Below, piece after piece: positions 21,173 to 64,000 of a stretch of DNA of 64,000 nt. The notes below the pieces were generated by a model. The model was not told the origin of the DNA, did no database searches, and worked only from the letters and a program-made list of their open reading frames with translations. Within the stretch, counting starts at the first letter, position 1; each line of letters begins with the position of its first letter. The stretch lies in assembly GCA_000091205.1 (NCBI GenBank), contig AP006488.2; one strand, written 5' to 3'. Source of the stretch: Cyanidioschyzon merolae. Lineage: Eukaryota. The position numbers and the translations under genes were made by a program.

Positions 21173-22165
21173 TTGTCGTTGGCGCGGACCCGGAAACTCA
21201 AATATCGTTACCGTCGCAGTACCCAAGCGTGTGGCAGATGGTACTAACGGCACCTTACATCAGACAGACATGTGTCTTTTGAGGTTCTCGAGAGCAAGAT
21301 ACGATCGAGAATCCGGTATGATCAATGCAAGGAAGAAAATTGAGACATGGAATGCAGGAATGAAGGATCACCTGCAAGCTTTGAGCGAGGTGAGGAGCCG
21401 AGGAGCGGACTTTACAGATTTTCGGGAATTCATGGAAGTTCGCGTTGCTCATTGGGACGCGCTGTGGGAGGATTATACAAAGCCCAGGTGGGCTCGTTTG
21501 CGAATGAATCTGTACTGTGGGAAGCAGCGGGCGTTCGCCAACTTTTTCAATCAGGTGGGCGCCCTCAAGGAGATTGAAAGTCAGAGGCTCGTCGTAGCGT
21601 ACGGAGCAACGCGCTGGAAGACCCAAAAACGGGACTATGCCAGCTCCAACGACAAGAACGTACAAGGAGTGTGCACGGCGTTTCGCTGCGATACCTGCAG
21701 ATGAGTTTCGAACATCGTATACACACCACGAGCTGGGATTTACACTTCAGAGAGTCGAGATGGAAACGTGCCAACGAAGCCATGAGGAAATAGCAAACTA
21801 CGGACCGCTGATGGGAGAGCAAATGGATAAGAGAGCGAAAGTTCGTGGACTACTTGCGCTGGTGAGCGCAACCAAAGATGACAAGAAACGTATGGTATTA
21901 GTGAACCGAGACTTTAACGCCGCTACGAATGTAAAGAGATGTACGGTGACAGATAGAAGACCTCCAGAGTCGACAAGAGAGAACTTTGTTAGACAATCAC
22001 TCAAAGTGGAACTATATGAGAAACAGTTGGAAGCAGTTGTAGGTGACCGGTCCAAAAGGCTGGGAGGCGTCTGCACGTCAGCTGGGGATTTCTTGTCTAG
22101 GGCGGGCTTCTCGCCACTACTGTACACCGCTGGCGACAACGTTTTGCTTTTGAAAGGCGTTTTGT
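21173..22165 (+). mobile_element. Fanzor/TnpB-like element copy 2 (family A; 5'-truncated, begins at the RuvC-I 'VVGADP' segment; frameshifted)
   Basis: Homology begins at 'gttgtcgttggcgcggaccc'. ORFs 21141..21704 and 21637..22353 lie in different frames, with the same +1 insertion as copies 3 and 4. The 'VNRDFNAATNVKR' RuvC-III-like motif and the conserved 3' end are present. Confidence 0.7.
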
Positions 22166-22194
22166 TTCAGGGGTTTTTGCAGTATACAGACACT

Positions 22195-28350: not shown

Positions 28351-29242
28351 GAATGGCGTTTATTTTTTAGGCGACGACCACAAGCCTGTTCCCTAGTCAT
28401 CGGTCGTACGCGCGACTCCTCGGAAGTTTGGCTATAATCAGCGCGCCCCTCTAGCAAAACAGTCGAGTCGGCACCAGATGCGCCCGAGAGGCCCCGCGCC
28501 GACCTTCAACCTATTCTCGCTAACCAAAAGTTGAATACCTGCTCTGCAGCTGTTCGATCAGCTACCTCGACAGAGTAGAGGTCGATAAGCGCTCTTTCAC
28601 GATGAACTACCAGGTCATGCGCAAGTCACGCACCCTACGCTTTCGTGCTATCCGCAAAACCTGCTATCTTCCAAGCGTAGCGGCTTGCGGACCATCAAGG
28701 CAACTATGCGCTGAAATTCCGCCTCTTGTACCGTTGAACAACTTCCCTGAATGCTTCGCGCCATCGAGAAGCATATTCATGTATCGTGCGCCTGCAAGAA
28801 GCGGTTCCAACACTTCATACCGACTCAGTGGGTCCTCGACCGCAATCAAGTTCAGATTTCCGGACACAGCGTCCGCCTACGCATGAAAAACGGCCTCCAA
28901 GTCTGTTGTCGCGTGCTGTTTTTGAGGCAATGAGGAACCGCGGATGCATTGCTCGTCCACTGAGCAGTCGCGTGCGCCAGTATCGAGGACGCGTGCCGTT
29001 CTCGCAGCAAAAGAACCAGTCTGTCGGAGCGTCTCCTACTATTCCACGATACTCCAGCGGAAAAAGAGCGACTCTTCGCCCCTGTCGACGAATTGGCGCC
29101 CCGGGCGACGCTTTACGCACTTCGAGCGCTCCATGAGAGCAACCGTGAATCCCAACTGTCCCAGTTTACGATCATCGCTGGCACGGTTCAAACCGCAGTG
29201 CCCCGCCAGTTAGCAAGTTATGTCGTGAGATATTCGGAGGAA

Positions 29243-31726: not shown

Positions 31727-32707
31727 TGGCGGCCGACCCCAGAAACACAATTTCATAACCATCGCAGCACGGAAGCGTGTGGCAGATGGTACTAACGGCA
31801 CCTTACATCAGACAGACATGTGTCTTTTGAGGTTCTCGAGAGCAAGATACGATCGAGAATCCGGTATGATCAATGCAAGGAAGAAAATTGAGACATGGAA
31901 TGCAGGAATGAAGGATCACCTGCAAGCTTTGAGCGAGGTGAGGAGCCGAGGAGCGGACTTTACAGCTTTTCGGGAATTCATGGAAGTTCGCGTTGCTCAT
32001 TGGGACGCGCTGTGGGAGGATTATACAAAGCCCAGGTGGGCTCGTTTGCGAATGAATCTGTACTGTGGGAAGCAGCGGGCGTTCGCCAACTTTTTCAATC
32101 AGGTGGGCGCCCTCAAGGAGATTGAAAGTCAGAGGCTCGTCGTAGCGTACGGAGCAACGCGCTGGAAGACCCAAAAACGGGACTATGCCAGCTCCAACGA
32201 CAAGAACGTACAAGGAGTGTGCACGGCGTTTCGCTGCGATACCTGCAGATGAGTTTCGAACATCGTATACACACCACGAGCTGGGATTTACACTTCAGAG
32301 AGTCGAGATGGAAACGTGCCAACGAAGCCATGAGGAAATAGCAAACTACGGACCGCTGATGGGAGAGCAAATGGATAAGAGAGCGAAAGTTCGTGGACTA
32401 CTTGCGCTGGTGAGCGCAACCAGTGATGGCAAGAAACGTATGGTATTAGGGAACCGAGACTTTAACGCCGCTACCAATGTAAAGAGATGTACGGTGACAG
32501 AAAGAAGACCTCCAGAGTCGACAAGAGAGAACTTTGTTAGACAATCACTCAAAGTGGAACTATATGAGAAACAGTTGGAAGCAGTTGTAGGTGACCGGTC
32601 CGAAAAGGCTGGGAGGCGTCTGCACGTCAGGTGGAGACGTCGTGTCTAGGGCGTGTTTGCCACTACTGTACACCGCTGGCCGCAGCATTTTTCTTTTGAG
32701 TGGCGCT
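31727..32707 (+). mobile_element. Fanzor/TnpB-like element copy 4 (family A; 5'-truncated at the same point as copy 2; same frameshift)
   Basis: Homology starts at 'gctggcggccgacccc...catcgcagcacggaagcgtgtggcagatgg'. ORFs 31779..32252 and 32185..32649 are more than 98% identical to the copy 2 and copy 3 peptides. The conserved 3' end is '...gtctagggcgtgtttgccactactgtacaccgctggccgcagcatttttcttttgag'. Confidence 0.7.
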
Positions 32708-46530: not shown

Positions 46531-48258
46531 TCAGTCCCAGACCTCTACCATGTATCGGCCTTGCATGGCCATGAGACTGAGCATTTGCTCAGCCTCTGAG
46601 GCGCTGAGACCAGCGCGGCTGCAGAGCACCGCTTCCAGGATCGCTCGACGCACTTCAGCTGGCATGCTTGTGCTCGAGCTGCCTGCCACCATGATATGGA
46701 CTCGCTGCGAGCGATCCGTACCCTTGAAACAGGTCTCGTAAATCAAGTCTGCATCTTGCCGAATACGATCCTGTACATAGCATTTGGGGCGACCGTCTCG
46801 CGGTCGAGAGTACGCGGGTAGTCGCTGTACCACGGACGACGGCCAATTCTCCCGGAATAAATCATCCGCGGTATCGTTCCGACAGCCGTACACAAGGATC
46901 TTGTTCGACGGCAGCCGTGTTGTCGAAATCGTTGCCAGGTGCGATGTCATGCAACGGAAGACGCCAATACCGGTACCAACTGCCACCATGAGCATCGGAC
47001 ACTCCGGATCTGCGGGTAGTCGAAGCGTTCCCGGTTGAATCCAAAGACATACCGAGTCGCCGCTCTGCAGATTACGCAGGCAACCACTCATTGTTCCGAT
47101 CCGGAGACGTCGCAGAGGTGTTGCGTAGCGCACCAGGCGGACGCATATCTCTACAAGTGCATTGTCTTCAGGCGAGGCTGCTTTTGCTGCATCGCGCATG
47201 TCGGTGGCAATCGAGTAGCCACGCGGTTGCATTCTCGGCATGACCTCGAGAGCATGTGCGAGGCTCGGGAAACGTGCAGATGGGAAATCGCGCAGCACAA
47301 GCAGCACCGTTCGCTGTTCATGGAGGATATAGCTGGCGTACGCGGCGGCACTGTCCGCGATTTCCAACAGACGACGCTGCTCGTGAGCCTCCGTCGCGAA
47401 GCAGGCAAGTTGACGTAGAAATCGACGTCGGGGAATTCCGTTCAAGTCGAAGAGGCGTTGCACCAGCGATCGCGCCCTGACTCGCTCTCCAGTCAGATTT
47501 TCTATCCAGAACACTTCATTCGGATCCCATGATGGGAATAACTGAAAGAAAGCATCCACAGCGCTGGGCCGATTCTGAGGAACAAGGTACGCAACGTCTC
47601 CAGGCATGAAAATGGGCCCCGCTGACCCCGAGCGACCCACGAGGAAACGAAAGAGCACCACGTGCTTTTCATCAGGATAAGTATCATCGAGGGCCAGTTC
47701 CCGTGCGTCCAGAAAGACTGCTTCCCGGTTCACAGGCCGGAGATGCCAACGAGACGGTGCTATTCGTTGCTGCCTCTGCTGCTGACGGCGTCGATAGGCC
47801 TCCATGCGCTGGGCGCCCAGGAGACTCGTCAACCACTCGTTAAAGGCATCTTCCCAGAGCGCACCATCGCCCAGACCAATGGGTTGGATGCGGGTGGCAC
47901 CCAGCTGGGCGAGCCGCACATCGAGGCGTCGTGCTACCGCGTTGAACTTGGGATAGCTACGATCACCAAGTCCGAACACTGCGTATCGCACGGCTCGCAG
48001 CCAGTTGGCGGGGAGACGCCGCTTTCGCAGAAAACGCCAGAACGCTGCAAAGTTATCCGGCGGCTCTCCGTCTCCATAGGTGGAGACAACGAACAGGACA
48101 ACAGACTCGAACGGAAGATTCTCCGGATCATAGAACTGAGCGCTTCGGCAGTCAGCACCAGGACCTATAGCTTCTGCGAGCGTAGCTGCGGCGTCTGCAG
48201 CGTTACCCGACTGTGAGCCGTAGACGACCAGTGCGTGCTCCAGGAATTCATCGTCCAT
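46531..48258 (-). CDS. NADPH-dependent diflavin oxidoreductase (NDOR1/Tah18-like; flavodoxin plus FAD/NADPH domains)
   Basis: The 575-aa intact ORF has an N-terminal flavodoxin signature 'LVVYGSQSGNAADAA...VVSTYGDGEPPDN...VFGLGDRSYPKFN'. The FAD/NADPH domain shows 'RGYSIATD', 'MVAVGTGIGVFR' and 'YVQDRI'. Confidence 0.8.
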   Translation of the reverse strand: MDDEFLEHALVVYGSQSGNAADAAATLAEAIGPGADCRSAQFYDPENLPFESVVLFVVSTYGDGEPPDNFAAFWRFLRKRRLPANWLRAVRYAVFGLGDRSYPKFNAVARRLDVRLAQLGATRIQPIGLGDGALWEDAFNEWLTSLLGAQRMEAYRRRQQQRQQRIAPSRWHLRPVNREAVFLDARELALDDTYPDEKHVVLFRFLVGRSGSAGPIFMPGDVAYLVPQNRPSAVDAFFQLFPSWDPNEVFWIENLTGERVRARSLVQRLFDLNGIPRRRFLRQLACFATEAHEQRRLLEIADSAAAYASYILHEQRTVLLVLRDFPSARFPSLAHALEVMPRMQPRGYSIATDMRDAAKAASPEDNALVEICVRLVRYATPLRRLRIGTMSGCLRNLQSGDSVCLWIQPGTLRLPADPECPMLMVAVGTGIGVFRCMTSHLATISTTRLPSNKILVYGCRNDTADDLFRENWPSSVVQRLPAYSRPRDGRPKCYVQDRIRQDADLIYETCFKGTDRSQRVHIMVAGSSSTSMPAEVRRAILEAVLCSRAGLSASEAEQMLSLMAMQGRYMVEVWD

Positions 48259-48544
48259 CGCTTGGCAGTAGCCTTAACGACGCAAGCCGCTCGTGCAGTC
48301 CACGAGAGCGTCGTTGCGAGCGCTGTCAAGCAGCTCTGTGGTGCCAGTGCCGCCTGCCAAACGGCCAAGCCGCAAGCAGGTTCACAGGCAGGGCGTGCCT
48401 CCTCAGAAGCGGCGGCCAGTCAAGAATAATGGATGAAGGCTTCGATCCAGCTCCACGAAACTTGTGTTGGGACTTGCACTATGCCTAGCCAATAGGCATG
48501 CAGTGCGATAAAAAACCTTGGTCGTCACAGATCCTGTCTACGTA

Positions 48545-48573
48545 CAGCACAAGCACAAGCACAAGCACAAGCT
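48545..48573. repeat. (ACAAGC)n hexanucleotide microsatellite
   Basis: 'acagcacaagcacaagcacaagcacaagc'. Confidence 0.8.
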
Positions 48574-48888
48574 TCACCAAAAGCCAGCTAGCTTAGTTAG
48601 CTAGTCAAACAGGCTGGGTGCGCTACGCGTGATCCGCATACTGGGACAGTCAACGGCGAGCGTTGCGAACGCTTTCTTCTCGAGTGATCGTGATAGGTCA
48701 GAGCTCGTGCTCTATCGCGCAGTGCAGCACTCAACGACGCTCTCTTACTATACTCCACTCAAGCAATCCACTTACGCAACGAAGCCGGACGGAGTACCGC
48801 TTCGCCTATAAGCAACTTATTGCTACACTAACCGGGGCTGGCGGAGGACTTTTTTTGACCGCAGCTTTCGTGGACACTGCAGCACTAT

Positions 48889-49857
48889 GTGCGAAAGTCT
48901 CGTTGGATGCTGAAACGCAACGGTCAGAGCCGCGTTTCGGCAACGACGGAGCCACCGGCGACGACAAACTCGGTCGTGGACGTTGAGGCAGGGCGGGACT
49001 CGCCACCGAACGTGTGCCTGCAGCCTGCACTTGAACACTGGGGCGACCACGCGTACGCCGAACACAATGCACTGTCTGAGAGAGGCCGTGCTGAGCGGGA
49101 AACTTCTGACGCTGGAGCGGTAGCGCTCAGTGACTGCACCAGAGGGTCCAGGCAGAGCGCAGGTGCGACTGATGCACCAGCAGCGTGTGCAGGAACAGCA
49201 AGTACCCACGAGACAAGTTGCGCTTTATCTAACGCTGACCGGCCCGAAGGTCAACGAACCGACAAGCAAACCTCGCATACTATGCGCGTCCAGGCGAGTG
49301 CGAGCTGGACACACGCTGTAGACGAGAACCCGCAGCGATCAAAGGACTCGTGTGAGCGACAGCAGCCCGCTTCGGATGGACGCAAAGCCTCTCCGCCGAA
49401 CTCGGGACCTGCACTGGGGTCAACGAGCCCACAGACGGATCATAGCAAGCCCGGGGGTACAGGAGCTGCACAAACGCCAGCACCGAATCAGAATCCTGTT
49501 GATAGCTTTCGCTGGCAACAACTTCTCCAGTATCATGCGTCGCGTAACGTAGGATCCAGAGCGCGAGATCTTTTAGCCCTGGAGAGGACTTTTCTTTCCA
49601 TGATTCGGACGAGCCTCTCATCCGTGGCGCTCGGGGTTGCCATTGCGAAACTCATTGGAACCCGCCTAGCGGATGCTACCGGCACGGTGTTCATTAGCCT
49701 CGGGCTCCTGACGCTGATAATTGGACTCTGGCGGTATTACACTCAAATTTTGGCCATTGAGCGGGGCCAGTTCGCAGCCGACACCGTATTTCCTTGGATT
49801 GTGGTGGTTCTGCTGCTCACGTCCGGTGTGGTGTCGCTGGTGCTTATCTTCAAGTGA
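48889..49857 (+). CDS. Membrane protein with a C-terminal DUF202 (YidH-like) domain; the N-terminal region is low complexity and the start is uncertain
   Basis: The C-terminus reads 'ARDLLALERTFLSMIRTSLSSVALGVAIAKLIG...ISLGLLTLIIGLWRYY...VVVLLLTSGVVSLVLIF' (ERT.L.W.RT pattern plus 3 TM segments). The first codon of the ORF is GTG; the first ATG is at 48907. Confidence 0.5.
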   Translation: MRKSRWMLKRNGQSRVSATTEPPATTNSVVDVEAGRDSPPNVCLQPALEHWGDHAYAEHNALSERGRAERETSDAGAVALSDCTRGSRQSAGATDAPAACAGTASTHETSCALSNADRPEGQRTDKQTSHTMRVQASASWTHAVDENPQRSKDSCERQQPASDGRKASPPNSGPALGSTSPQTDHSKPGGTGAAQTPAPNQNPVDSFRWQQLLQYHASRNVGSRARDLLALERTFLSMIRTSLSSVALGVAIAKLIGTRLADATGTVFISLGLLTLIIGLWRYYTQILAIERGQFAADTVFPWIVVVLLLTSGVVSLVLIFK

Positions 49858-50454
49858 GGCATCGGCGGAAGCGTGACACCCGAGACTAGATTGACATTGC
49901 CTCGAATATTCTACTCGTCTAAAGAGTCTTGACGTAACCAGCGCATGCCGTCGTCTGGCTCGGAATCGAAGGCGTCTGGCGTCGCCTGAGCCTGCGCTCC
50001 GGAGCTCTACACCGGTGTCCAATGGGACTGAGGCATGGAACTCCAGACGCTGTTCCTGTCTTGCGAGTTTCCGCAGCGAATTTTCGAGGCACAGCCACGA
50101 AAATGAGATGTACCAGAGTCAGAGCTCATGGAAACATATGTAGTTTTACGATTCTCGGTCGTGATTGTGGAGTAGGTTCTCTCACGCCCTCTGACACTGG
50201 ACCTTGGCTCGTCATCCGGGACCAAGATGATTCGCGACGTCCTCGAAAAATTGTTTAGAGAACAACCGATGCCATAATCTAGTTCATGTGGACAAGAATC
50301 CAGGCGTCTCGTTTTCGAATTGTTCTCTGTTTCTAGGCACTTCTTGGGTGCAGGAGTCTGCGCATTTGGATGGACGAGGAAGAGGAAAACTCAACGCCTT
50401 GCCCTGATAAGTTGTCCAGAAGCTCATGCAGAAACTTTGCTGAACGTATCACAT

Positions 50455-50900
50455 TCATCCGTGGATTTCGTTCGACAGACAAATCGTCCTCTGTTTGTAG
50501 CCGCCGTCGAAAAGCGATTCGGTACCAGCATCATGCATCGCACGGGATATGCTCTGGAAGGTTCGCAGCTCTTTCTCTTTGCATGGACATGGGTTTTGGA
50601 CTCGGACTCGGACTCGAGTCATCGCAGCGATCGCTTCCAATAGAATGTGCGCCAATGCTTTGCATGATGAGAGTGTAGACGGATCGACGCTTCTCGACAT
50701 GATTTCCAGGCTGGATTTTTCGTGCGGTATCTCCATCATCGTGAACACCATCGCTTGGCACAAATCCTTTCTTGAATAGGATAGGGGGCGCTTGCGCACA
50801 CAGCAAACAGAGTACTCTCCGAGTGGGTCATTTAGAAGAGGTCCATGATCATCGTGTACGTTACCGGGCGCGGAAAAGAATGAGTGCGCCAACGGGGCGC
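50455..50900 (-). repeat. Dispersed repeat, copy 2 (inverted partner of 39560..39950)
   Basis: See 39560..39950. Confidence 0.5.
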
Positions 50901-52286
50901 CTCTGTACCCATCAAGGACATGTAGCCGGTGGTGAAGCAGATGTTCACGGGCGACAAGGCAACGCTCGGTGAACGAGGTACCCTAGGCACACGAGACCAG
51001 CGGACTGCAGTCAAAATACCGCTGCTGCAAAAGGTACACGGACGGTATTTATAGATATAGAAGACGAAAGTGGCAAGCAACGCTTCGATTCCAAATCCCG
51101 CATGTCCATTACAAGAAAAGGAACAGACGGAAGTTGCGAAATCGAGACTTGAAAGTTGCCGTCCACGACCTTCGACATCTGACTTCAGAGCTGGGGGCAC
51201 AGGAGCGGCTGACGCATTGAAAGCCGGAGATGAGGGAGCGGAAACCGTAATAGCGATGTGAGCATTCCGCACGGGCTGCCGATGATGTACATGAGAAGAG
51301 ACCCAATCTTTACTTATTCCGCCCGTGGTAGCTGCGTGGATTCCTTGCATTCTACTCTGGTGCGAGCCAAAATGATGGACATTCAGAAACATGACCGCAA
51401 CCGATGCGTCATTTTGGTAGAGTATGAAAACGAACATTTCGTGCTGCGATCATCTTTGGAACCTGACCATGTCCAAAATTTCCGTCTTCGTTCAACGAAA
51501 ACAGGTCTGCTGTATCTTGTTACAGGCACGGTGCCCAGAAACGGACGCGTGCTGCACTGCAACCCGCAGTCGTCAACGAAGCGCTTGTCGTACCAAATGC
51601 GAGTGTGCTCACGAACAGACAGCCGGCGTTGTCTACTGATGCACACTGCGCAGTTCCACATCTTCGATGACGACTGACGATGAAAAGCCGCGGCTATATG
51701 GCACATAGACGAATGCGCTTCGGCGTTTCTCATCACAGAATACCGAACGAGATCCGAGTTTCGTTTTCCGTCCACGTTCATCTATGTGCGCCATCTCCCG
51801 GACAGCCTGAGCAACGAGCGTTCAGCCGCAAAAGTCGTCGTTCGGTGCTCTGTTTTTTTAACCAGTATAGCGGAAGAGGCAGCGTCCATCAGGAACACGA
51901 ACTGTTCGCAAGCGAGTGCGAGCCGACGCTGATCCCTCGCCGCTCTTGTGCCGACCCAAAAATCCTTCGGTTCATGCGCGTCATCGCCGTTGACTGCGTC
52001 GACTCCCAGCGAAATGCTCTCAACTCGCACCATAACGGAGCTGAGGTTTCGAATTTGCATACGGACCGTAGCCTGGAAACCAAATACCCTATTCCGAATG
52101 AATCAGTATCGCGAAGTTTGCCTTTCAAGTCGCTGATGTCTCGAATACGTTCAGGGCCGGCCGCCCAGTCATCCTGATCCAGCCTGGTTGGATCAGCATC
52201 AAGACGTTGCCGTTGCCAGACTTGCTCTAGCAGCATCGGCTCCCAGAAGGCCATTGGTACCTTCACTCGATGGATTGGCTCCAGCA

Positions 52287-53390
52287 TTATGCCGCAGAAG
52301 ACGGAGGTTTCGCTACCGGCGACGATGCGGGCTGAGGTGCAGTCACGGAGACTGCTTGCAAACAGCTGAGAATCTTCTCGGGATTCGAGAGCTCTTTCTC
52401 TGTTTGCAGACACGGCATGGAGACGTCATCAAGAGCGTACGGACCGACGCGAAGTCGAACCAGACTTGTCATGTGCGCGTGCGTGCCGAGAGCTTTCCCC
52501 AGGTCGTCAATGTAGGTGCGGATATAGGTTCCCCCCGAGCAGTCCACGAACAAGGTGCCTGTGCCCTGTCTCGCGTCGAATGCCTCGCAGCGTGCTTCGA
52601 AGACGTAGACCGTTCGAGAAGGCAATTCACCGATCGCATCGGCTTTACCGGCCCGAGCGAGGTCATACAGCCGTTCACCTTGCACGCGAACTGCGGAAAA
52701 GGCTGGTACTCGCTGCACGATTGCACCGTGGAATGCCTCCGACTGCAGGAGGCGATTCAGCGCCTCAACGTCATATTCACGGAGATGCTCAAAACTCGAG
52801 CGCGCTATCACTTCACCAGTGCAATCTTGAGTATCCGTCGCTGAGCCGAGTTTGAACGTTGCCCGGTACTGCTTGCGTCCGCGTTGGAACTCCCAAAGCT
52901 GCCGCGTGTACTGCGCGCCTACCGCTAGAACGAGTACACCACTCGCGAGCGGGTCCAGCGTTCCACCGTGTCCGACGCGAAGTCGAAAACGACGTGAGCG
53001 CCGACCTGCACCAGACCCAGATGACGACTTGCCGACACCCGCAGGAGGACTAGCAGCGGTGGGCGCCTCGTGTTGTCGTAGGTACTTTTCCAGGGTTGCG
53101 CGTACCTTGTTCACGACGTCGAACGACGTCCAGTTCTGAGGTTTATTGACGATCAAGATGCCACTGGGTTCTTTCGGCGAACGAGCTGCGCAGCGCAGGT
53201 CACTAACAGCACGAGAGCGCTTCCGGGAGCCAGGCATGGACCCAAGCGCTGGCCCAAGTGCAAAACCAGAAACACCGCTGCCACCGACGGCGGAGGCAGC
53301 AAAAGCAGTCGTCGAAACAGCAGCAGCAGCGCCAGGAGCAGTGGTTCGCAGGGGACGCACCAGGCTCAGAAACGCCAACTGAGTTCTCAT
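52287..53390 (-). CDS. truB: tRNA pseudouridine(55) synthase TruB/Pus4-like with an N-terminal extension (possible organellar targeting)
   Basis: 'GILIVNKPQNWTSFDVVNKVR', 'RVGHGGTLDPLASGVLVLAVGAQYT' (catalytic Asp in the GH.GTLDP block), and 'YRATFKLGSATDTQDCTGEV'. Confidence 0.75.
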   Translation of the reverse strand: MRTQLAFLSLVRPLRTTAPGAAAAVSTTAFAASAVGGSGVSGFALGPALGSMPGSRKRSRAVSDLRCAARSPKEPSGILIVNKPQNWTSFDVVNKVRATLEKYLRQHEAPTAASPPAGVGKSSSGSGAGRRSRRFRLRVGHGGTLDPLASGVLVLAVGAQYTRQLWEFQRGRKQYRATFKLGSATDTQDCTGEVIARSSFEHLREYDVEALNRLLQSEAFHGAIVQRVPAFSAVRVQGERLYDLARAGKADAIGELPSRTVYVFEARCEAFDARQGTGTLFVDCSGGTYIRTYIDDLGKALGTHAHMTSLVRLRVGPYALDDVSMPCLQTEKELSNPEKILSCLQAVSVTAPQPASSPVAKPPSSAA

Positions 53391-54269
53391 AGAAAGTACA
53401 AAGAGTTGATTGGTAACTGCTATGCCGCTCCAAACTCACTCAGGTGCGTTATGGGGTACACTACGTAAACGAGTCGGTATGCGAGCGAACAACAGCGCGA
53501 GCGACTCAGTTTTCTCGATGCCAAAACGTTTAGATTGACCAAAGATCCCAGATTGCGGGATGCGTATTGATGATCGAAAAAGCGTCCACCATGCTGCAGC
53601 ACCCTACCTCCAAGTTCTATTTTTCGCACTTCCTTTCAGATATACTGGTTATTTCTTAGGTTCTGATTTGCACCTAACATGCCATGAGCACCCGTCCTGG
53701 CGCATATACCGCTGGTGCAGATGCATCACGGAGACGGAAAAGCTTTTCCAGCACCACCACTGAGGGCGTCGAATCGAGGAACGCTTCACCTGGTACGGAT
53801 TCGCAGTACATAGTCATGCTGAAGGCCTGCGAGCAGCGCAGACAGACCTACAGCCTGCGGCAGCGAGAAGCGGCATGCCAGGTGTCCACCGCGAACAGGG
53901 CGACGCTCAGAGGCGTCATACCCGCTGCGAGCTCCTGAATGAACTGCGTTGCGGACAAACTGCTCACATCTCACTACAGCATCCGTCAATTGCGGGGGCG
54001 GGAGGCGGGTATGCAGCGCTAGCCCGGGAGACTCGTTCAGCTCGCGGGACCTTCCGCTAGTACAGTGAACTTTTGACAATATGGAAACTTGTTCCCCATG
54101 TAACGTTTCTTGTGGTGGTGAAAAGAGATTCTAGTCTCGTTGCTATCTAGTGGTTAGTTTCTGTTCTTCTCTCTATAGAGCGGTCCGTACGTGCTCTCCG
54201 ATATCAGGAAGGTACGAAACGCGACGCGCATCTCGCCGTTACACATCAACGCTATCCTGATGATTAGCG

Positions 54270-56740
54270 TGTTTCTCTATCGTACAAGATGTGTTTCGGT
54301 TGAAGCCATAGCAAATTATCGTCTTTCGATTCAGCTGTGCTCCAGCCCTAGCATTAGCGTTTTCAAGTGCTTTTTCGTGGTTTATAGCAGAAGCGTTCGT
54401 AGCGGGTTCGTTTTCAAAAATAAAAAAAGAAAAGCCATGGGGAAGGAAATGGAGGATCCGGTAGGCTCGGCGCCGCCGATCGCCGAAAACAAAAACTAAA
54501 AACACTGCCAAGCCCAGAGGATCAAGACAAGGCGAATATGAAGAAATGGGAGGCTCGACCTCAAAAGCGACACAAAAGGCGACAGTACGACGAGAATGTA
54601 GTGAAAGCATTTCTTCTACTCAAGACCAAGAATCCCTACAAGCAGGAGTTGCGAAAGGCCATCAGAAACCGTGTCGCGTCGTACTCCATCAGTATCATTA
54701 AGGCTTCTTCAGGACTGATGCATAAGGTGAGCGAGACGTATCGCGACATCACGGACAGCAGAACAGTCGAGGTTCCGGGAGAATTCTTCAGCGAGGCCTT
54801 CATCAAGCACCTGCTACGTGGCACAGGGGAAACTTCGAGGAGAAATGAGCGAGTGTATGCCCTCCAGGAAAATTATATCGTCTAACGCTTGAACGGTACG
54901 ATATAAAGGTGAGCTCGAATTTTTACATCTACGGGGCGGTGAAGTACACCACGAATCTGAAGAAACATTTGAGCATGAACCTAAAACGCTTCACGAAACG
55001 CTGCATCATATTTAAATCTACGGGGCGATGAAGTACACCACGAATATGAGGAACCATTTGACCATGAACCTCAAACGCATCATGAAACGCTCCATCTTTG
55101 CGCTGTACCCGGACCTCTCACACAAAGGGAAATGGGCCACCATGAGTAGCATCACGAACGATCGACAGCATGAACAGGAGATCGAATTCGCCGGTGAGGA
55201 GGCATCGCCCAGTACCATGAATGAAGCTCCTGTGGTCCGTGCGGCTGTCCAAGAGCACCGCGGAGGTCTGGGGCTGGCCAATCCAGAAGAAAAGGTATCA
55301 GAGATGGAAAAAGATGCTATCCCCTGAACCTGCGGTATTTCGTGTTTTTGGAACGAAGAACTCGAACGCAAGGCGCATATGGATCTGGGCATGGAGGTAT
55401 GTTGAGAGTCTTTGAAACGGATGGCTGGGCTTCTGGAGAAGCGCTTCAACGTCGTTCCGTTATGAAAGATCATGTCGTACTGTGTCACAATCGATTCCAG
55501 AGTCCTTCATGGCATCATGAGGAAGATTTGTTCGTAGTTCGATTCAGGCAGGGAGAGGTTCACCGGCGAAACCGGGAGACTTGTCGGAAGAATATCTTTG
55601 ATTTCAAATGTCTTAAAAGGAGCACAAAAAATGTATTCAGGGGTACGATTGGGAGCGATGGACTACCCATACGTTTGCACTATCGGCGCTTGATGGCGGA
55701 TCGTACGACGCAGGAGGTGCAGAAGAACGACTTTGTCGTTGACGTGGATTCTGCGAAATCGAATGTCAAGACCACCGCAGCACCCAAGTGTGCGCAAGAT
55801 GGTATCGACGGCAACTTATGCCAGAAAGGCATGTGTCTTATAACGTTCGCGAGAGCGAGACACTAACGAGAATCAGGAATCATGAACATGAGGAAAAAAA
55901 GTGAGACTTCGAATACAGATGTGAAGAAGCACCTGGAAGTGATCAGCCAGGCCACTTGCCATGGAGCGGACTTGCAAGCCTCTGTAGCGTTCATGAAAAT
56001 TCGAGCTGCTCATAACGAGTTGCTGTGGGAAAAGTACTCAATGACCCGGCGAGTTCGCCAGCGTCTCAACCTGCACTACGGAAAGCAGCACGCACTTGCC
56101 AATTTCCTCCATGAGGTGAGCGCCCTCACGGAGTACATGAGTCTAAGCCTCCTAGCAGCATACGTAGCATGGCGCTTGGCCTTCCAAAAAAGGGATCATA
56201 CGCTCTCCATCGACGAGAGCGTACCAGGCGTGCGCACAGCGCGTTGTCACAATACCGATGGATGAGTTCCGAACGTCATGAATACAGCATGAGCTGGGAA
56301 GTACACTTCAGAGGGTCAAGACGGAATAGTGCCAGCGGAGCCCTGAGGATATTGAAAAAGCATGGAGCGCCGACAGAACAGGAAATGGCACGGAGGGCAA
56401 AAGTTCGAGGAATCCTTGCATTAGTGAGTGCAAGCGACAGCAAGAAACTGATGGAGTTTGCGAACCGGGACTTTAACGCCGCTATCAATATCAGACGATG
56501 TGCCGTGCCTGAGACGAGCGCCGAAGAGCTGAGACGATCCAACTTCATGGGCAGCCCCTCAAGGCGGATTTGTCGAAGAAGAAGTCGAAACCGATAGTAG
56601 GTGGCCGGTCGCAATAAGCCGGGAGGCGTCTGCACGTGGGCGGCCAGACATATGGTCTATGGCGAGCGGAGCCTAGCGCGCTGCTCGCCACCACCGTACA
56701 CCGCGTGCAAACCTGCGCCGCTCGCAAGGCGTTCGTTGTT
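54270..56740 (+). mobile_element. Fanzor/TnpB-like element copy 5 (divergent family C; several frameshifts and stops)
   Basis: The 5' end 'agcgtgtttctcta...' and the N-terminal region 'MKKWEARPQKRHKRRQYDENVVKAFLLLKTKNPYKQELRKAIRNRVASYS...SSGLMH' are colinear with copies 1 and 3. The segment 'FVVDVDSAKSN' occupies the RuvC-I-like position. 'FANRDFNAAINIRRCA' is RuvC-III. The related 3' end is '...cgtctgcacgtggg...gccaccaccgtacaccgcg'. Confidence 0.55.
54927..55100 (+). repeat. Internal tandem duplication (2 x about 88 bp) within element copy 5
   Basis: 'atctacggggcggtgaagtacaccacgaatctgaagaaacatttgagcatgaacctaaaacgcttcacgaaacgc...' is repeated immediately as 'atctacggggcgatgaagtacaccacgaatatgaggaaccatttgaccatgaacctcaaacgcatcatgaaacgc...'. 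Confidence 0.5.
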
Positions 56741-57568
56741 GACGGCCGTGGTCGAATCCGCAGAGGCATGCAACACCCCTCGATGATATGTCATCTGCAG
56801 GAGCAGCATCGTCGTACACAGTCGCATCGACGATAAATGAATCACCTGTTTGTCGGGAATGATGCGCTCTGAGGCGTTCATTTCCCTGACGCGTACCGAG
56901 CGCACCTGTTTCCCTTTGCGATACCGGACCAGGTTCAGTTCAAGCGAAAGCGACCCTGTACAGAGTACCGTTTGATCCCTCGGAAACTGGCCGCGTTTGC
57001 GCTCTCGGAAGAGACAGGTTCGATGATTCGTTTCTGTATCGTCTAGAAAAATCGATCCCGAGACCTGCGAATCACACCCAAGACCCTACTGAGTCCTGAA
57101 ATCGACGACGAAACGTACAGGAACACCGGTAGTGAGCGGCATCCGCTGGCGTCTGGTCAATTCTGGAAGCATACCAGGGAGCGCCTGTGCTAGCATCCAT
57201 ACATGCCCATATTGGATCCGATGCGCTAGCGTCACAATACGCGTCGTTTCCGATTCGGAGTTCCAGCTTTGAACATCGTGGATCACACTCGCGCTTCGGT
57301 GGTTTCCAGGGTTCTCGCCTGAAACGGCGCCGATGCAGCCGCACCGATGTCTTTCGATGCTCCTTCGAACAAGAATCATTTTTGAATATAATACTGGTGC
57401 TGTTTTTGTGTTGCTTATCGTGACCAAATCATCTGAGTGACATGCTCTGCCATGCGCGCTGCGCGCGCATCGAAATCGTCGATTATTCAATGCTGCATCA
57501 CGAACGCAGACCCGGCGCCATGTGTCGTAAGGAGGCGTCGCTGATCCACAAGCGCTGCACCTGGCGTA

Positions 57569-58444
57569 CTATCGAGCGCCCGCGTTTCCTGAGCCGAGTC
57601 TGAAGCCCTTCAATCGACGCCAATCACGTCGATTCATCTCGCTCAAGATCTCTCGCATCAGTTTATAAAACCTGGAATCGTGCTCTGCGTGCTCATTGTG
57701 CGCAAGCTCGTGTGCCAGTACTTCCCGAATAGCGTCATATCGGCGAAATCCGGCCAAATCATCGGTTCGCAATCGCAGATAAATCGCAGCACCGCGACCT
57801 TGATTCAGTCCAAGGACGCAAACCGGATCGACGCCGACTCGACCGTCAGGAGCCATTTCACAGAGTGCACCCACTCGCCAGTGCCATTTCTGCATAACGT
57901 AATTAACACCGGGATCTCTAGCCAGCTGTTCTAACAAAGAATGGGCCTGATGAGCATCGGCAAAGTTCCCGAGCACCCGAAGCTCGGAGAAGCCCCAACG
58001 CGAGCAGCTCCCAACCGGTGCGCGCGGATACAGCTCGCCATCGAACGGCCGAGCCGGACGCCGTCCAGGCCCGTCAAAATCCGCCGGCCGCACAAGCGGG
58101 TCTGGTCGAGCGAGTTGAACGCGCTCCAGTGCAAACGAAGCCGTGCCGATGACGCGAAGCGGTTGCTGCTTCTGAACAGCCGCGAGGAGCGCGTCCCCAG
58201 TGCGAAGAACACGTCCTTGTGCGATCAGTTTCACAGTTTCTCTGGCAAAGTTCCAAGCTGAAGCCACCTGCTCCCGCAACTCCTCGTAAAGAGCCTCTGG
58301 ATCGGCCGCAGACACCCGCAACACGCGGTCGTTCACCCGCACCTCCAGCGACGACGCAGCGTCTGTGCAGGGTGCCCTCAGCTCTGGACTGTCCCCGGAA
58401 GCTCCGGCACCATTCGTCCCTATCTGTGCCACAGCAGAGGTCAT
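57569..58444 (-). CDS. WLM (Wss1-like) zinc metalloprotease with an N-terminal ubiquitin-like region
   Basis: The WLM core includes 'LGLNQGRGAAIYLRLRTDDLAGFRRYDAIREVLAHELAHNEHAEHDSRFYKLMREI', which contains the HExxH motif 'HELAH'. The N-terminal 'LRVSAADPEALYEELREQVASAWNFARETVKLIAQGRVL' region is ubiquitin-like. Confidence 0.65.
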   Translation of the reverse strand: MTSAVAQIGTNGAGASGDSPELRAPCTDAASSLEVRVNDRVLRVSAADPEALYEELREQVASAWNFARETVKLIAQGRVLRTGDALLAAVQKQQPLRVIGTASFALERVQLARPDPLVRPADFDGPGRRPARPFDGELYPRAPVGSCSRWGFSELRVLGNFADAHQAHSLLEQLARDPGVNYVMQKWHWRVGALCEMAPDGRVGVDPVCVLGLNQGRGAAIYLRLRTDDLAGFRRYDAIREVLAHELAHNEHAEHDSRFYKLMREILSEMNRRDWRRLKGFRLGSGNAGAR

Positions 58445-58713
58445 TCTAAGTCCCGCAGATCACTGGTTGCAATCTGAAGGGAACCTCGGGTCTAAAACAG
58501 CGATTTTAGCGCTCGTATCAGAATATTCCTACCTCGCACGTGAACGTACAAGCTATGCGGTACGCGTGTGGTACTGCTGAAACTGCAGTGAGCGTAGACA
58601 CGTATCGTTGGAATGAGCGCGCTGCAATCGGAACATGCAGCATGCCCGCACCGCTCGTGCGCGCTTTCGATCATCACGTCCCATCGATGGAAGCTGCGCT
58701 CGGTTTCCGCAGA

Positions 58714-58742
58714 TGCGTGCGTGCGTGCGTGCGTGCGTGCGG
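58714..58742. repeat. (GCGT)n tetranucleotide repeat
   Basis: 'gcgtgcgtgcgtgcgtgcgtgcgtgcgg'. Confidence 0.8.
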
Positions 58743-58744
58743 CA

Positions 58745-58873
58745 GCGACACTGTGACGCCCTGGACCGTACAAAGCGTCTTAGATTCGTATCATCAGAAT
58801 TTTACCGGCAGCGACATCCTGAAGCCCTTGACCGTGCAAAGACCCTTAGATTCGAATCATCAGAATTTTATCC
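58745..58873. repeat. Tandem duplication (2 x about 63 bp) '...cccttgaccgtgcaaagacccttagattcgaatcatcagaatttta'
   Basis: Read directly in the sequence. Confidence 0.6.
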
Positions 58874-58887
58874 CGACCTGAAATCAT

Positions 58888-59559
58888 CTATTCAGAGGCT
58901 GCATTCGTGCCGTTGTCGCCGTTTTCTGGAGAACGTTGCGACTCGGGCGGCTTGCGACGCCGTCCAAATACCTTACCCATGATATCTGCGTCTTCATCAA
59001 CGTAGCCCTCGTCAACGTAGGGCAAACGGAGGTCAAAGCGTTCTCCATAATCGAAGCGCGGTATACCGAAGGACGGCCAGGGCAGTATAATGCCCCGTTT
59101 TGGTTCTTCGCCGTACCCGACCTCTTTCCAGGTCCCAGCAGTACGCTCCTTCTCTCGTTGCCGCTCCCAGGCTATTAGCGGGTCCTCGCCCGGTTTTGGT
59201 TTCTCTTTGGCGTTGAGCTGCTCCTGCACAGCTTGACGCCGCTCTGCAACGCCTTCGAGGTGCCGCCCAGCTCGGCGCGCTTCCAGCTTCTCCCGCATAA
59301 TTCTCTGTTGCTCTGCAATTTCACGCTCCCTTTGACTTTCAAGTTGTTTGTTCTGTGCGCGGTCATTCTCTCCGTCGCCGAAGAGTGGTTTGAACGCGTC
59401 AAACAAACCGGCGATAACAGCTCGGGATGTTGCCCGCGTTCGAGGTGCACGTCGCCAGTGACGTCCTGGGGCAAGGCACGCTCCTCGAGCCTGCCAACGA
59501 CAGTCCAACGCGCTCCGTACCACAGGCAAACGACTTGCTGCGAACGCGTTTACGGTCAT
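58888..59559 (-). CDS. Hypothetical protein (223 aa) with a basic N-terminal presequence and a charged coiled-coil-like middle region
   Basis: Intact ORF. The N-terminus 'MTVNAFAASRLPVVRSALDCRWQARG...' is rich in Arg, Ser and Ala. The middle is dominated by E/R/K/Q heptad-like runs. Confidence 0.45.
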   Translation of the reverse strand: MTVNAFAASRLPVVRSALDCRWQARGACLAPGRHWRRAPRTRATSRAVIAGLFDAFKPLFGDGENDRAQNKQLESQREREIAEQQRIMREKLEARRAGRHLEGVAERRQAVQEQLNAKEKPKPGEDPLIAWERQREKERTAGTWKEVGYGEEPKRGIILPWPSFGIPRFDYGERFDLRLPYVDEGYVDEDADIMGKVFGRRRKPPESQRSPENGDNGTNAASE

Positions 59560-60465
59560 GAAGCAGTTGCAAGAGCGCTCTGTGCGCGCTTACCCCCAGC
59601 ACTACATGTGCCTTTCTGCTACGGATGGGGCGCAAACGTGCATTCCGCAACAGGCGCAAGCCTACCATCCATTGCGGATGCGCGCATCAGGGGCGTGCGC
59701 AGCCCGCGCACTGGCGGTGCCTGCCAGCTCGGACGGCAGCATCCTCCGCGATGTACCCACAGTGGCTTCGTACGGAACAGATCCTCCACGTTACCTCCGG
59801 CGTATAAACTGAGGTTAGGGGCTATTCCTACCGCCACCAACGTAATGCGTATACAGACAGAAGATGCAAAATCAGTACATAACTTTACCACCAATACTCT
59901 TCGATTGCGGGCAACAGAGTCGCATGAATGGAAGACACCATTCTATTTAAAGCCACAGCAAAGAGAGATGTAAAGGAAGCAGTCACGGAACAAGCCCCGA
60001 GTGGCTGATGTTGATGAGCGTGTGCATCGCTGCGTCGAACACACGTGTGTATGCGCCTGTGGCGACGACACGTATCTGTCCAATTTGTGCAGATATGGAT
60101 CTATTGTGTACCATTCGGATACACGTCGCTATGTTCAAAAAGAGCCATATATACACTTTTTTCCCTAAAATAGCCGAAGTCGCCTCAGAACGATCGTGCG
60201 CCCGCTGGGCTTGTCCCGGGTGCCGACTCGGGAAGCAGCTTCGTGCACAGGCAAACATCGAAAAGCACGTGCTGCTGCTTCTGTACGGCTCCAGGCATAC
60301 GCTACACGCTTTTCTGCTCATAGACAGCGGAAGCGACAAGTTCGGTTACTGCCTTGAAGACTTAGACGCTTTAGAGAGACCATCATATCGATTGTTTCAG
60401 TTTTCTGACCTCCTCGTAACCACCACGCTCGCATCTCTGTTGCAACGGCACGCGCAGCAGCTCTC

Positions 60466-61446
60466 ATGGCAGCCAAAGCTGAACCCGGGCATCCAGAGAG
60501 TGGAAAGCTGCATCAAAGGTGGCGCAAAGCCAAGGAAGCCGGTAATCTGAGCACGTTTGCATCACCTGCAGAGCTGCGAGCACTCGTCCAAGCGAAACTG
60601 ACACCCGAGGAGCAAGTGCGTTTCGGGATGCAGTGTGCAGGGCTGGCAGCCAAGGCACTTGAGGTACTCGACAAGTCGCTTACATCTTTAGAGCAAGACA
60701 TTGAAAACGAGTCCTGTGACTGGGAAATAGAATCGGACGCTGCCATGGACCGTGTTGCCAGGCGATTCCTTGCCGATCTCGAACAGCTAAAGCAAACTGG
60801 CAGCGCGCGTCGACTCACCCAACTCAGTATTTGGCGTCGCATCAGTCGCTATGTCGTCCTGGCGGAAAGGCGAGCAGCGGAAGCGTCGCGCCAACGCGAG
60901 CATGAACTGCAGGCTGAAGGCAGTCCTTTTGTGAGGCAAGTCGCGAAGATCGCGGACCAGGCATCCAAGACTCCGGGATACCGCCAGGTCGTTGCCTGGG
61001 AGCATCTGGAAGAGCTTGCAGACGCGGCAACTGCAGATGGTGCATTCGGTTCGCAGTCGCGGTCGATGTCACGTATCTTACGTCGCCCAGAAAGTCGGTT
61101 TCGACTCTTGCTCACGAAACTAGAGCTTGGCGAGGAGCTCTGCACACCCGAGGAGCGGCGTTTGATGCTAGCATTGGATACCTCTGATGCGAGACTTGAA
61201 CCCGAACGCATGCGCTCGAGGAAGAGGGCACCTGGTGGAGCGCAGGATGGCGCCTCTGCAAAGCGCGACCACGGGAGGTCTGCATCCGTTTCGTCGTCGT
61301 CGTCGTCATCGTCGTCGTCGTTAGATCCAGAGCACGAGGACGACGTGCACCCAGCGGCCAAGAACGCGTCTTCCGTGAGAAAGAAAAGACGACATCACCG
61401 GCGACGATCATCCAATAAAAACGAAACACTGGAGAATCCTCAGTGA
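60466..61446 (+). CDS. Hypothetical protein (326 aa), partly low complexity (poly-Ser, basic C-terminal tail)
   Basis: The ORF is intact from an ATG. It contains SSSSSSSSSSS, encoded by (GTC/GTCGTC)n, and ends in 'KKRRHHRRRSSNKNE'. Confidence 0.45.
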   Translation: MAAKAEPGHPESGKLHQRWRKAKEAGNLSTFASPAELRALVQAKLTPEEQVRFGMQCAGLAAKALEVLDKSLTSLEQDIENESCDWEIESDAAMDRVARRFLADLEQLKQTGSARRLTQLSIWRRISRYVVLAERRAAEASRQREHELQAEGSPFVRQVAKIADQASKTPGYRQVVAWEHLEELADAATADGAFGSQSRSMSRILRRPESRFRLLLTKLELGEELCTPEERRLMLALDTSDARLEPERMRSRKRAPGGAQDGASAKRDHGRSASVSSSSSSSSSSLDPEHEDDVHPAAKNASSVRKKRRHHRRRSSNKNETLENPQ

Positions 61447-62440
61447 GCTAGCATTTGAGCGAGATTGCCGCTGAATCATCGCCGTGCCCTGGCCCTGTGG
61501 ATATCGCATGATGCCTCGTTTACAGCGGTTCAGTCATGATACTGGGTGGTGATTATCGCCGCCGGAATACCTCAGGACTAGACCGCGGATCGTTGGAGGC
61601 TACGCTCGCGTCCATCGCGTGTACCATGCGCTGCAAAAGTGGTGCTTGTCTGCAGCTCCACAAAGAGCACATGATCGCGTGCTGTGCTGCGAGCACCACG
61701 GCGCCGGCCTCTGTCGGCAAACGCGCTCAAAGGCGTACTCGCGACAAGCATGAATTCAGCAGGAATATTGGCGCTGGTTGAGGCACTACGACTGACTATC
61801 GAGAGACCAATCTCAGCAACCGCAGCATGCGTCGATCACTGGGGCGCAGCTTAAACTCCAGCATCGATGCGGCCGCGTCAGAGCCAGACCTGCAGACTAG
61901 TGGACAGAGCGCAGCATGCCTCATTCTGGATTTCGCAGAAGTACCCGCCAGAGACGCTTCTCATGGTAGCCAGTGGCGGATCGCGTCTATTTCGGTACCG
62001 GGAATTCGGACGGATTCCGCGTCCAGTCGACCGGGGACGGTTCACGCTCTCCACTCGGACGTCAACGCGTTTCAGTTTGGTGATGAAGGTGCTGCATTCA
62101 TCGACCGACCAGTCTGCATGACGATTCGACGAACATCGGGCGGAACCTTTGATGCATACCTCTGGAGCATGATTCGCAGAGGTGTACTTTTTTGCAGGTC
62201 GTCGAGGTGGAGCGTGTGGCGAGAGCCACATATTTGAGCGACCTCGCACCGGGCGTGATCCAAGACACCATTCGGCTGATGCTCAAGCGTGCCTCGCGTA
62301 CCCGACATGTCGTTGCTCACCTTCGTGATGCTGGTGTGCTTCTATGGGTAGCGTACTTGCGCTCGTTTGCGAAGCGTAGCGGACCTTGAGGACAAATGGC
62401 ACGCTCCAGCAGCCATGCGCTTGCATAGGTCATGCATTCA

Positions 62441-63994
62441 TCATGTGATGCTTTCCAAAGCAGCACCTAGGGCGTGGTCATCAAACACGTCGTGGAAATC
62501 CCAGAACTGCACATTCCAGCGGGGGTGGTAGCGCCGACACCAGCGCTCAAAACCCTGGATATATGCGGGTCGCAGGTGCGCATCCAAAGAGTTCCGAAAC
62601 GCCACCATGGACTCCTCGATGATCGAGGGATCCATGAGAATGCTCCCCGACAACGGATCCAGCATCACCTTGACCGGAACATGCTCATAACCCCAGAAAG
62701 GCAGTTTCGTCCCGATATCGCCGACCGCTGCCCATCGGAATGAAAACGGCACATGTCGCTGGAACGCTGCAGCGAAAGCGCGATTCCCGACTCGAGGCGA
62801 CCCAAAAGTCACACACATTACCAGATCCGATGACAGACGCAACGACTGTGAATTCTCAAAACACGTCATATCGAGGGCAGCGATGCTTGCCAGGGCCCCG
62901 CCGAGAGAGTGACCTCAAAAGATCACCGGTTTGTGGTTGCAAGATGCACTATCCAAGGAGTTCATCGCACTACACGGTTGCGCTTCGCTCGCATCTGCTG
63001 CTGCTGCTGCTGCTGCTGTAGCAGTTTCGCTTCGACACCGCGCTGCGGTCTCTGTACCCGCTAAGCTCAGCTGCTGTTGCTGCTGCCCGTGTTCACAACC
63101 GCCACGAATATCCGCACTGGACACCTCGGGAAAGCGGTTCGATGGTTGCACGCGCCTATCCAGGCTGGTAGCGACACCACAAGTGGTATCGCCGCAGGTG
63201 CTGCTCAAGGGCGCGCAAGCCGCATCCACTGCGGTTGGTGCAGTGCTCGAGGGCTCTGCAACAAGCGGTTTCAGCGTCTCCATTAACTCTTCATGCACGG
63301 ATAAATAGGCGTGCAAAAATCCACCGTGCACCATTGTAGGCACTCGTCGCCCTATGAGATACGAAAAATCCTCACCAGCCTGAGCGCGAAAATCACCAAA
63401 GCGCAGGGAACGGATCCCGCGTACGCTCAGCATATACTGCCACCATCGTCGATGTGCAAAACGGCCTCCAGGATCTAAACCGAGTTCCTGTGACAGGGCA
63501 TCATCAAGACCGCGCTCTATATGCGAATCGTCCTTGGCAAAGGCCTCCACTGATGCCTGGTGCTTCCTAGTCGAATCTATTTCGCGCTTGCTGTGTGTTG
63601 CGGGCGGTATTTGCGAACAAGTCGCAGCCGAGGTGCCGCTACGCCCGGCAGCCAAGGCAGTGGTGCTTACAGCATTCGTCGTACGAGGCATTCGAGTTGT
63701 ACCGTCGACCGTCGCTTTCGCCGGTGACTCCCGCAACGACCCGCGTTGACCGTGTTTGCTGCAGGCGCTCAAGCGCCACGTATCCTGTATTTGCGGACAT
63801 TCACGTGCATGCAGGTGCTCCTTGAGAGGAACCCGTCGGACATTCATATCTGTGCGTAAATTTCTGGTGCTTTTGGTACCGCGAAAGCTCACCACAATCC
63901 TATCCGCCAAGTCAATGACGAGCACATGTACATCTGTAACGGCGCTGGAGATATGCCGCACGACTCGTGCTTGCAGGGGGTCCATTTCGCCCAC
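62441..63994 (-). pseudogene. Class-3 (fungal-type) lipase family gene with an in-frame TGA inside the nucleophile elbow; its 5' end runs off the window
   Basis: Upstream of the stop the protein reads 'IVVSFRGTKSTRNLRTDM' and 'VHGGFLHAYL', ending 'CNHKPVIF' followed by TGA at 62912..62914. The same frame continues 'GHSLGGALASIAALD-MTCFENSQ...VTFGSPRVGNRAFAAAF'. The GHSLGG nucleophile elbow sits immediately after the stop. The first codon at 63994 is GTG and the frame is open to the window end. Confidence 0.6.
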
Positions 63995-64000
63995 ACCATA

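Follow-up and report, generated by a model that had tools for sequence, protein, structure and literature searches.

At its right-hand end, the window analyzed here, a stretch of 64,000 nucleotides of Cyanidioschyzon merolae DNA, contains a class-3 lipase reading frame that is open save for one TGA, located directly before the codons of the nucleophile elbow. The locus raises the question of whether this TGA is an error in the sequence, a codon that is recoded or read through, or a stop that has silenced the gene. Our results indicate that it is very probably an ordinary premature stop that arose from a Cys codon (TGC to TGA), that is, a null allele segregating in a decaying gene for a membrane class-3 lipase. 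The frame is on the minus strand and runs from 64000 down to 62441, with the 5' end of the gene beyond the window edge; a plus-strand reading of the interval was rejected because it contains many stops. The earlier note on this DNA had described a frame of more than 500 codons with a single internal TGA at the nucleophile elbow of a class-3 lipase, and this was borne out, as 519 codons were read with one stop directly before GHSLGG. The possible explanations that it listed were only partly supported. The strand was unstated, and its coordinate for the stop (62912-62914) was shifted by 3 nt and is the next codon, GGT (Gly), the true stop being at 62915-62917. The parts of the locus are as follows.

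62441-64000, minus strand: 3' 519 codons of a class-3 lipase gene, open save for one premature TGA (translation, Pfam Lipase_3, tblastn, and the syntenic ortholog at L002).

62915-62917, minus strand: premature stop TGA, formerly Cys TGC, seen as 'tca' on the plus strand; directly 5' of the nucleophile elbow.

62441-62869, minus strand: ATG-started ORF of 142 codons left after the stop, without the Ser nucleophile; taken by gene callers as a separate small protein.

62438-62443, minus strand: natural terminator TGA TGA, two stops in tandem, preceded by a C-terminus (...ALESIT) that is conserved in the orthologs.

61447-62437, minus strand: 3' UTR and intergenic region; no SECIS-like element detected, folding unremarkable.

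The ORF at 62915-63994 ends with the premature TGA included. Translation across the stop gives ...SASCNHKPVIF-stop-GHSLGGALASIAALD...ALESIT-stop, and a shorter extract of the same frame is ...NHKPVIF-stop-GHSLGGALASIAAL... ESIT-stop. The gene has a full length of approximately 1022 codons, and a composite reference (q498-1022) aligns in one frame in tblastn, by which the reading frame was traced; a MAFFT whole-gene DNA alignment of all loci was unusable, the upstream sequences being unrelated. Past the stop, the remaining 157 codons closely match those of the intact orthologs (dN = 0.087 vs L002, with dS saturated and omega well below 0.1 between species), so the open continuation is not due to chance. 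An intron skipping the stop was also considered and rejected, since the flanking residues align gap-free to the orthologs (KPVIF-C-GHSLGG). The post-stop ORF corresponds to cluster members P0054 and P0066 (142 aa) and to 125-aa calls. ORFs are sparse on both strands of the window, and tRNA and Rfam scans of all 64 kb gave no match.

The identity of the gene as a lipase is supported by a Pfam PF01764 (Lipase_3) match that spans the stop (80.6 bits against a cut-off of 22, E = 1.4e-22) and by matches to lipases in the PDB at E = 1e-11. The two motifs mapped are the GHSLGG elbow and GDIGTKLP, the latter aligned to D-I-V-P-x-x-P of solved class-3 lipases. Three elements of the domain bear on the effect of the stop and on the history of the gene.

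62897-62914, minus strand: nucleophile elbow GHSLGG, with the Ser codon at 62906-62908; downstream of the stop and aligned to solved class-3 lipases.

62717-62719, minus strand: putative catalytic Asp in GDIGTKLP; downstream of the stop and aligned to 'rDIvphvP' of lipase 6a0w.

62995-63018, minus strand: (CAG)8 microsatellite, read as poly-Ala; polymorphic in length, and the left junction boundary in class B and C contigs.

No uninterrupted ORF contains the whole alpha/beta-hydrolase core, as the TGA parts the N-terminal half from the Ser and the Asp. Translation most likely stops after ...KPVIF, which would leave a product without the Ser nucleophile, the Asp, and the C-terminal 157 residues, and such a product would be catalytically dead. 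A G/V polymorphism at codon 68 adjoins the putative catalytic Asp. The poly-Ala (GCA)n tract at window 62995-63086 varies from 6 to approximately 12 Ala among haplotypes, and a poly-Gln (CAG)n tract is found inside the same lipase insert.

In the related proteins P0068, P0061, and P0168, six to nine Kyte-Doolittle peaks occur at residues ~70-390, and Lipase_3 is C-terminal. The predicted architecture is thus DAGL-like, with a multi-pass membrane N-terminus followed by Lipase_3 with an insert, the likeness being one of architecture only. The sn-1 diacylglycerol lipases (DAGL) likewise begin with a multi-pass membrane domain and carry large inserts in the lipase domain that comes after it, but they have 4 TM helices, whereas the algal lipase has at least six hydrophobic segments. 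With the fungal-type class-3 lipases of Rhizomucor and Rhizopus (PF01764), the algal protein shares the Lipase_3 domain, GHSLGG, and the D-I-x-x-x-P acid motif. It differs from known class-3 lipases and DAGL in having a catalytic domain interrupted by long, low-complexity inserts of poly-Q and poly-A, in belonging to a family encountered only in red algae, and in that the ORF in the window is broken. The named lipase homologs are those of the red algae Gracilaria, Agarophyton, and Rhodosorus, at approximately 40% identity, and a homology search with the full ortholog gave matches in three cyanidiophyte clusters only.

Intact orthologs of the gene were found in two sister species, and both read KPVIFCGHSLG at the site. 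The 964-aa ortholog P0068/P0002 (locus L002, whose synteny with the window extends beyond 15 kb) has TGT, and the 963-aa ortholog P0168 (locus L019) has TGC. These codons indicate that Cys is ancestral and that the stop is one step from TGC, in agreement with the single-step Cys ancestor that had been listed as plausible from the window sequence. In Gracilaria, Agarophyton, and other red-algal homologs, the residue is Thr, so the site does not hold a conserved functional Cys.

Gene order between window 48000-64000 and L002:10000-22685 of the sister cyanidiophyte is conserved, with the lipase, DUF6823, WLM, TruB, DUF202, and diflavin reductase genes in the same order at 69-79% nucleotide identity. 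A metagenome protein matches the neighboring diflavin reductase at 100% identity, and the proteins of Cyanidiococcus yangmingshanensis and Cyanidium caldarium match it at 73% and 55%. Together with the red-algal homologs of the lipase, these identities place the source among the cyanidiophycean red algae. The window also contains five copies of a dispersed repeat of approximately 1 kb (12175-13202, 21173-22171, 27373-28371, 31727-32705, and 55697-56637; 68-98% identity), which was also found at L003:3588-4392 and L012:2431-3232. The copies in L003 and L012 are placed at the equivalent of window 60258, approximately 2.2 kb from the lipase stop. The repeat ORFs contain '...VDEFRTSYTHH...' and '...NREFNAAINIRR...', motifs that resemble, by eye, the RuvC motifs of TnpB/Fanzor-type nucleases; searches of the repeat ORF against Pfam, NCBIfam, and PDB sequences gave no match.

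Sixteen related contigs were recovered, L003 to L013 from one metagenome scan and L001 and L015 to L018 from exact-protein look-ups, and 15 of them were scored at the site, L012 being left out as it begins past it. The TGA was present in 10 contigs from several samples (L001, L005, L006, L007, L008, L010, L011, L013, L015, and L016), as in the window, and TGC in the other five (L003, L004, L009, L017, and L018). Consistent with this, the 90% cluster of the window protein (70 members) contains calls that end in ...KPVIF, calls that continue with Cys, and many post-stop calls of 125 or 142 aa. The TGA allele is therefore common in wild populations of this hot-spring-type red alga, beside the ancestral Cys allele, and the strain polymorphism put forward as one possibility in the earlier note is supported by the coexistence of the two alleles among related contigs.

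A sequencing or assembly error, or a consensus artifact at the site base, was plausible beforehand, and the window may stem from a mixed-strain assembly. However, the identical TGA recurs in 10 independently assembled contigs that differ elsewhere from the window and from one another (for example, the window and L001 are separated by 20 substitutions and one codon indel in 1174 nt), which excludes a sequencing error for practical purposes; we leave this explanation next to no probability. The same distribution contradicts the idea of a very recent nonsense mutation, as TGA is the majority allele. The four-gamete condition is violated by the site paired with 62886 and by the site paired with 62815, indicating recombination or gene conversion. 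In addition, a codon at a distance of 60 nt has three variants, and the TGA occurs with each of them. An allele present on so many recombinant backgrounds is not a very recent private mutation, and the pattern is best explained if the TGA allele is, as it would appear from these sequences, fairly old. Two oddities were seen among the recovered sequences. In the short contig L018 (1-140), a fragment with the TGA allele adjoins a rearranged copy with the Cys allele, and protein P0060 repeats, at its end, the 'PTMVHGGFLHAYLSV' region in a shifted frame; the two are chimeras made in assembly at the repeat, or else real rearrangements.

Further lesions were found in several copies carrying the TGA. 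Three of the five full-length TGA copies, L001, L010, and L013 from three metagenomes, have two extra nucleotides (GA) at codon ~174, within the conserved membrane domain, and the other two, L015 and L016, lack them; codon 174 is outside the window, whose copy starts at approximately codon 498, and the TGC copies do not reach it. In addition, a further stop (TTG to TAG; ENSQS-stop-RLSS) is present in L007 and L011, and L008 has lost 2 nt downstream of the site. The downstream frame is open in the window, L005, L006, and L015. In L015 and the window copy, the TGA is the sole lesion over the regions covered, and L015 is the only complete gene of this kind. Two features of a null allele are thus seen, namely a lesion that disables the gene relative to orthologs that are intact with Cys (P0068, P0168) and independent extra lesions in related copies (L001/L010/L013, L007/L011, and L008).

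The 3' ~590 nt of the gene are present alone in six to seven contigs, and similarity starts exactly at the (CAG)8 microsatellite (63018). Upstream of this fragment there is a DOP1-like gene in L005, L006, and L009, and a Cnd1-like gene on the opposite strand in L007, L008, L011, and L017. Together with the full gene, the 3' portion therefore has three upstream contexts, with at least 1.8 kb of downstream flank, and each fragment junction recurs at ~99% identity in at least three independent assemblies. Contigs L009, L010, and L011, from one metagenome, all break at the identical base, as is expected of a repeat with three entrances. Another reading, in which the class B and C junctions would be deletion alleles of one locus, was rejected, since the neighboring genes are absent from L002 and the window; the fragments are therefore in other genomic contexts, as paralogous copies or in rearranged strains. 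The three contexts at one microsatellite suggest segmental duplication or recurrent rearrangement. The 3' fragments, which are unable to encode a lipase, carry both TGA and TGC.

The within-population data point to relaxed constraint on the gene, with some signal in the other direction. The piN/piS ratio was 0.34, and approximately 0.5 without the window copy, and the MK-type table (Pn13/Ps12 vs Dn20/Ds51) gave an odds ratio of 2.8 (p = 0.049), an excess of amino-acid polymorphism. Among the five TGA copies, the N-terminal 497 codons showed 10N:6S. The private changes of L015 are all non-synonymous and include GHSLGGA to V and WAAVGD to WATVGD, while the window copy has private changes of 5N:3S upstream of the stop and 0N:4S downstream. 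The pN/pS ratio is below 1 overall and about 0.3 after the stop. The downstream frame is not evolving fully neutrally, a signal that carries little weight at 1-2% divergence. Recombination or gene conversion, as supported by the four-gamete violations, could have put an old stop on a recently constrained background. The convergent ORF at window 60466-61446 (plus strand, 326 aa) was considered as a neutral or functional control for pN/pS and rejected, since it evolves fast itself and shows indels and a stop in other contigs. It is ~93.5% identical in L003 and L012, with indels of 26, 9, and 3 columns, a TAT/TAG stop polymorphism, and 23N:15S against these contigs, as would fit either rapid evolution of a gene or a second case of decay.

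The downstream signal is what might be expected if termination were leaky, or read-through programmed, so that a near-cognate tRNA (Cys, Trp, or Arg) yielded some active lipase and the allele were hypomorphic: pN/pS past the stop is ~0.3 rather than ~1, the window lineage has only synonymous private changes there, and the allele is common, apparently old, and on many backgrounds. However, the sequence around the stop has neither a leaky context nor a stimulatory 3' structure. The context is UUU UGA G, and the 103 nt past the stop fold less stably than shuffles (z = +2.04). In eukaryotes, a purine at +4 and the lack of A at -1 and -2 favor efficient termination, and UUU UGA G is not known to be leaky. 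In addition, the same codon, in tandem, terminates the gene, and the further lesions seen in TGA copies speak against a function under protection. We regard leaky termination as improbable.

Decoding of the UGA as selenocysteine (Sec) deserves attention on account of what is reported for this alga. C. merolae has SBP2, EFsec, SecS, SPS2, and tRNA-Sec, yet no selenoprotein was found in it, and lineage-specific clients with unusual SECIS elements were suggested (Lobanov 2007, PMC2375036). The lipase could then be the missing selenoprotein of Cyanidioschyzon-like algae, a client for this machinery, with an unusual SECIS and with the TGC alleles as Sec-to-Cys variants. As in eukaryotic selenoprotein genes, the in-frame UGA is exactly opposite the Cys of homologs, here close alleles and two sister species, which is the classic selenoprotein signature, and the frame is conserved past the stop, staying open in the window and three contigs. 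The differences from such genes are that a SECIS was not detected, that the site is neither a redox site nor conserved, and that UGA copies carry other disabling lesions. The search for a SECIS-like element in the 3' UTR, proposed in the earlier note, gave none: in the interval 60400-63000, even a permissive limit of E ≤ 10 gave no match to any Rfam family, SECIS models included. Folding over the initial 400 nt of the 3' UTR (62040-62443) was like that of shuffles (z = -0.68), and polymorphism density in the 3' UTR is similar to that in the coding region. A scan of 128 kb with a SECIS-like pattern gave 0 matches and is uninformative, as the pattern was too strict and had no positive control. 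Sec would occupy not a conserved catalytic or redox Cys but the non-catalytic x of x-G-H-S-x-G, where other red-algal homologs have Thr. The frameshifts and extra stops in TGA copies, and the same TGA/TGC polymorphism in fragments incapable of making a lipase, also argue against Sec. Moreover, PSTK was reported to be missing from C. merolae (PMC6627142), and in 2020 still no selenoprotein had been detected in it (PMC7539508). Sec insertion at this site is thus very unlikely. Taken more broadly, the proposal that a full-length lipase is made, with the UGA either decoded as Sec by means of a non-canonical SECIS or efficiently read through by a near-cognate tRNA, has only a slim chance of being right. 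The stop-codon recoding that had been considered earlier is accordingly disfavored, as no SECIS was found, no structure is seen 3' of the stop, and secondary lesions occur in some copies.

Genome-wide reassignment of TGA to sense (Cys or Trp) would also fit the Cys/TGA correspondence at this one site. Against it, TGA terminates 10 of the 16 window ORFs of at least 250 aa, indicating a standard code, and also ends this gene at a C-terminus conserved in three species; no other in-frame TGA was noticed among the long ORFs. The earlier judgment that sense use of TGA throughout the genome is unlikely therefore holds, and reassignment, the explanation with the smallest probability, is refuted for practical purposes.

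Taken together, the data favor the ordinary premature stop. In this explanation, a single change from TGC (Cys) to TGA would have occurred in a large gene for a polytopic-membrane class-3 lipase, and recombination or gene conversion would then have shuffled the TGA among backgrounds and partial gene copies. The gene is apparently dispensable and undergoing pseudogenization in this lineage, while it is intact in two sister species. The case is similar to segregating nonsense alleles and unitary pseudogenes in that a single-step stop is seen against intact orthologs, the ancestral allele coexists with it, further frameshifts and stops have built up, and constraint seems to be relaxed. It differs from the usual segregating nonsense alleles in that the TGA is also on partial 3' duplicates, apparently through gene conversion or recombination, and from the usual studies of such alleles in that the data are metagenomic contigs rather than phased genomes.

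The phenomenon is already known in kind, and its novelty is low. If Sec decoding or read-through were true, the lipase would be the first client of the orphan Cyanidioschyzon-type Sec machinery and a natural Sec/Cys polymorphism at a non-redox site; population and comparative data instead make the tempting TGA/Cys pair an ordinary null allele, which clears a possible false lead. For annotators, it is relevant that metagenome annotations split the gene into two or three 'hypothetical proteins'. In addition, the locus illustrates the spread of a nonsense allele to partial duplicates as well as the gene itself, for which gene conversion is the probable means. A minor point of interest is that a gene is being lost here from a streamlined alga of extreme habitats.
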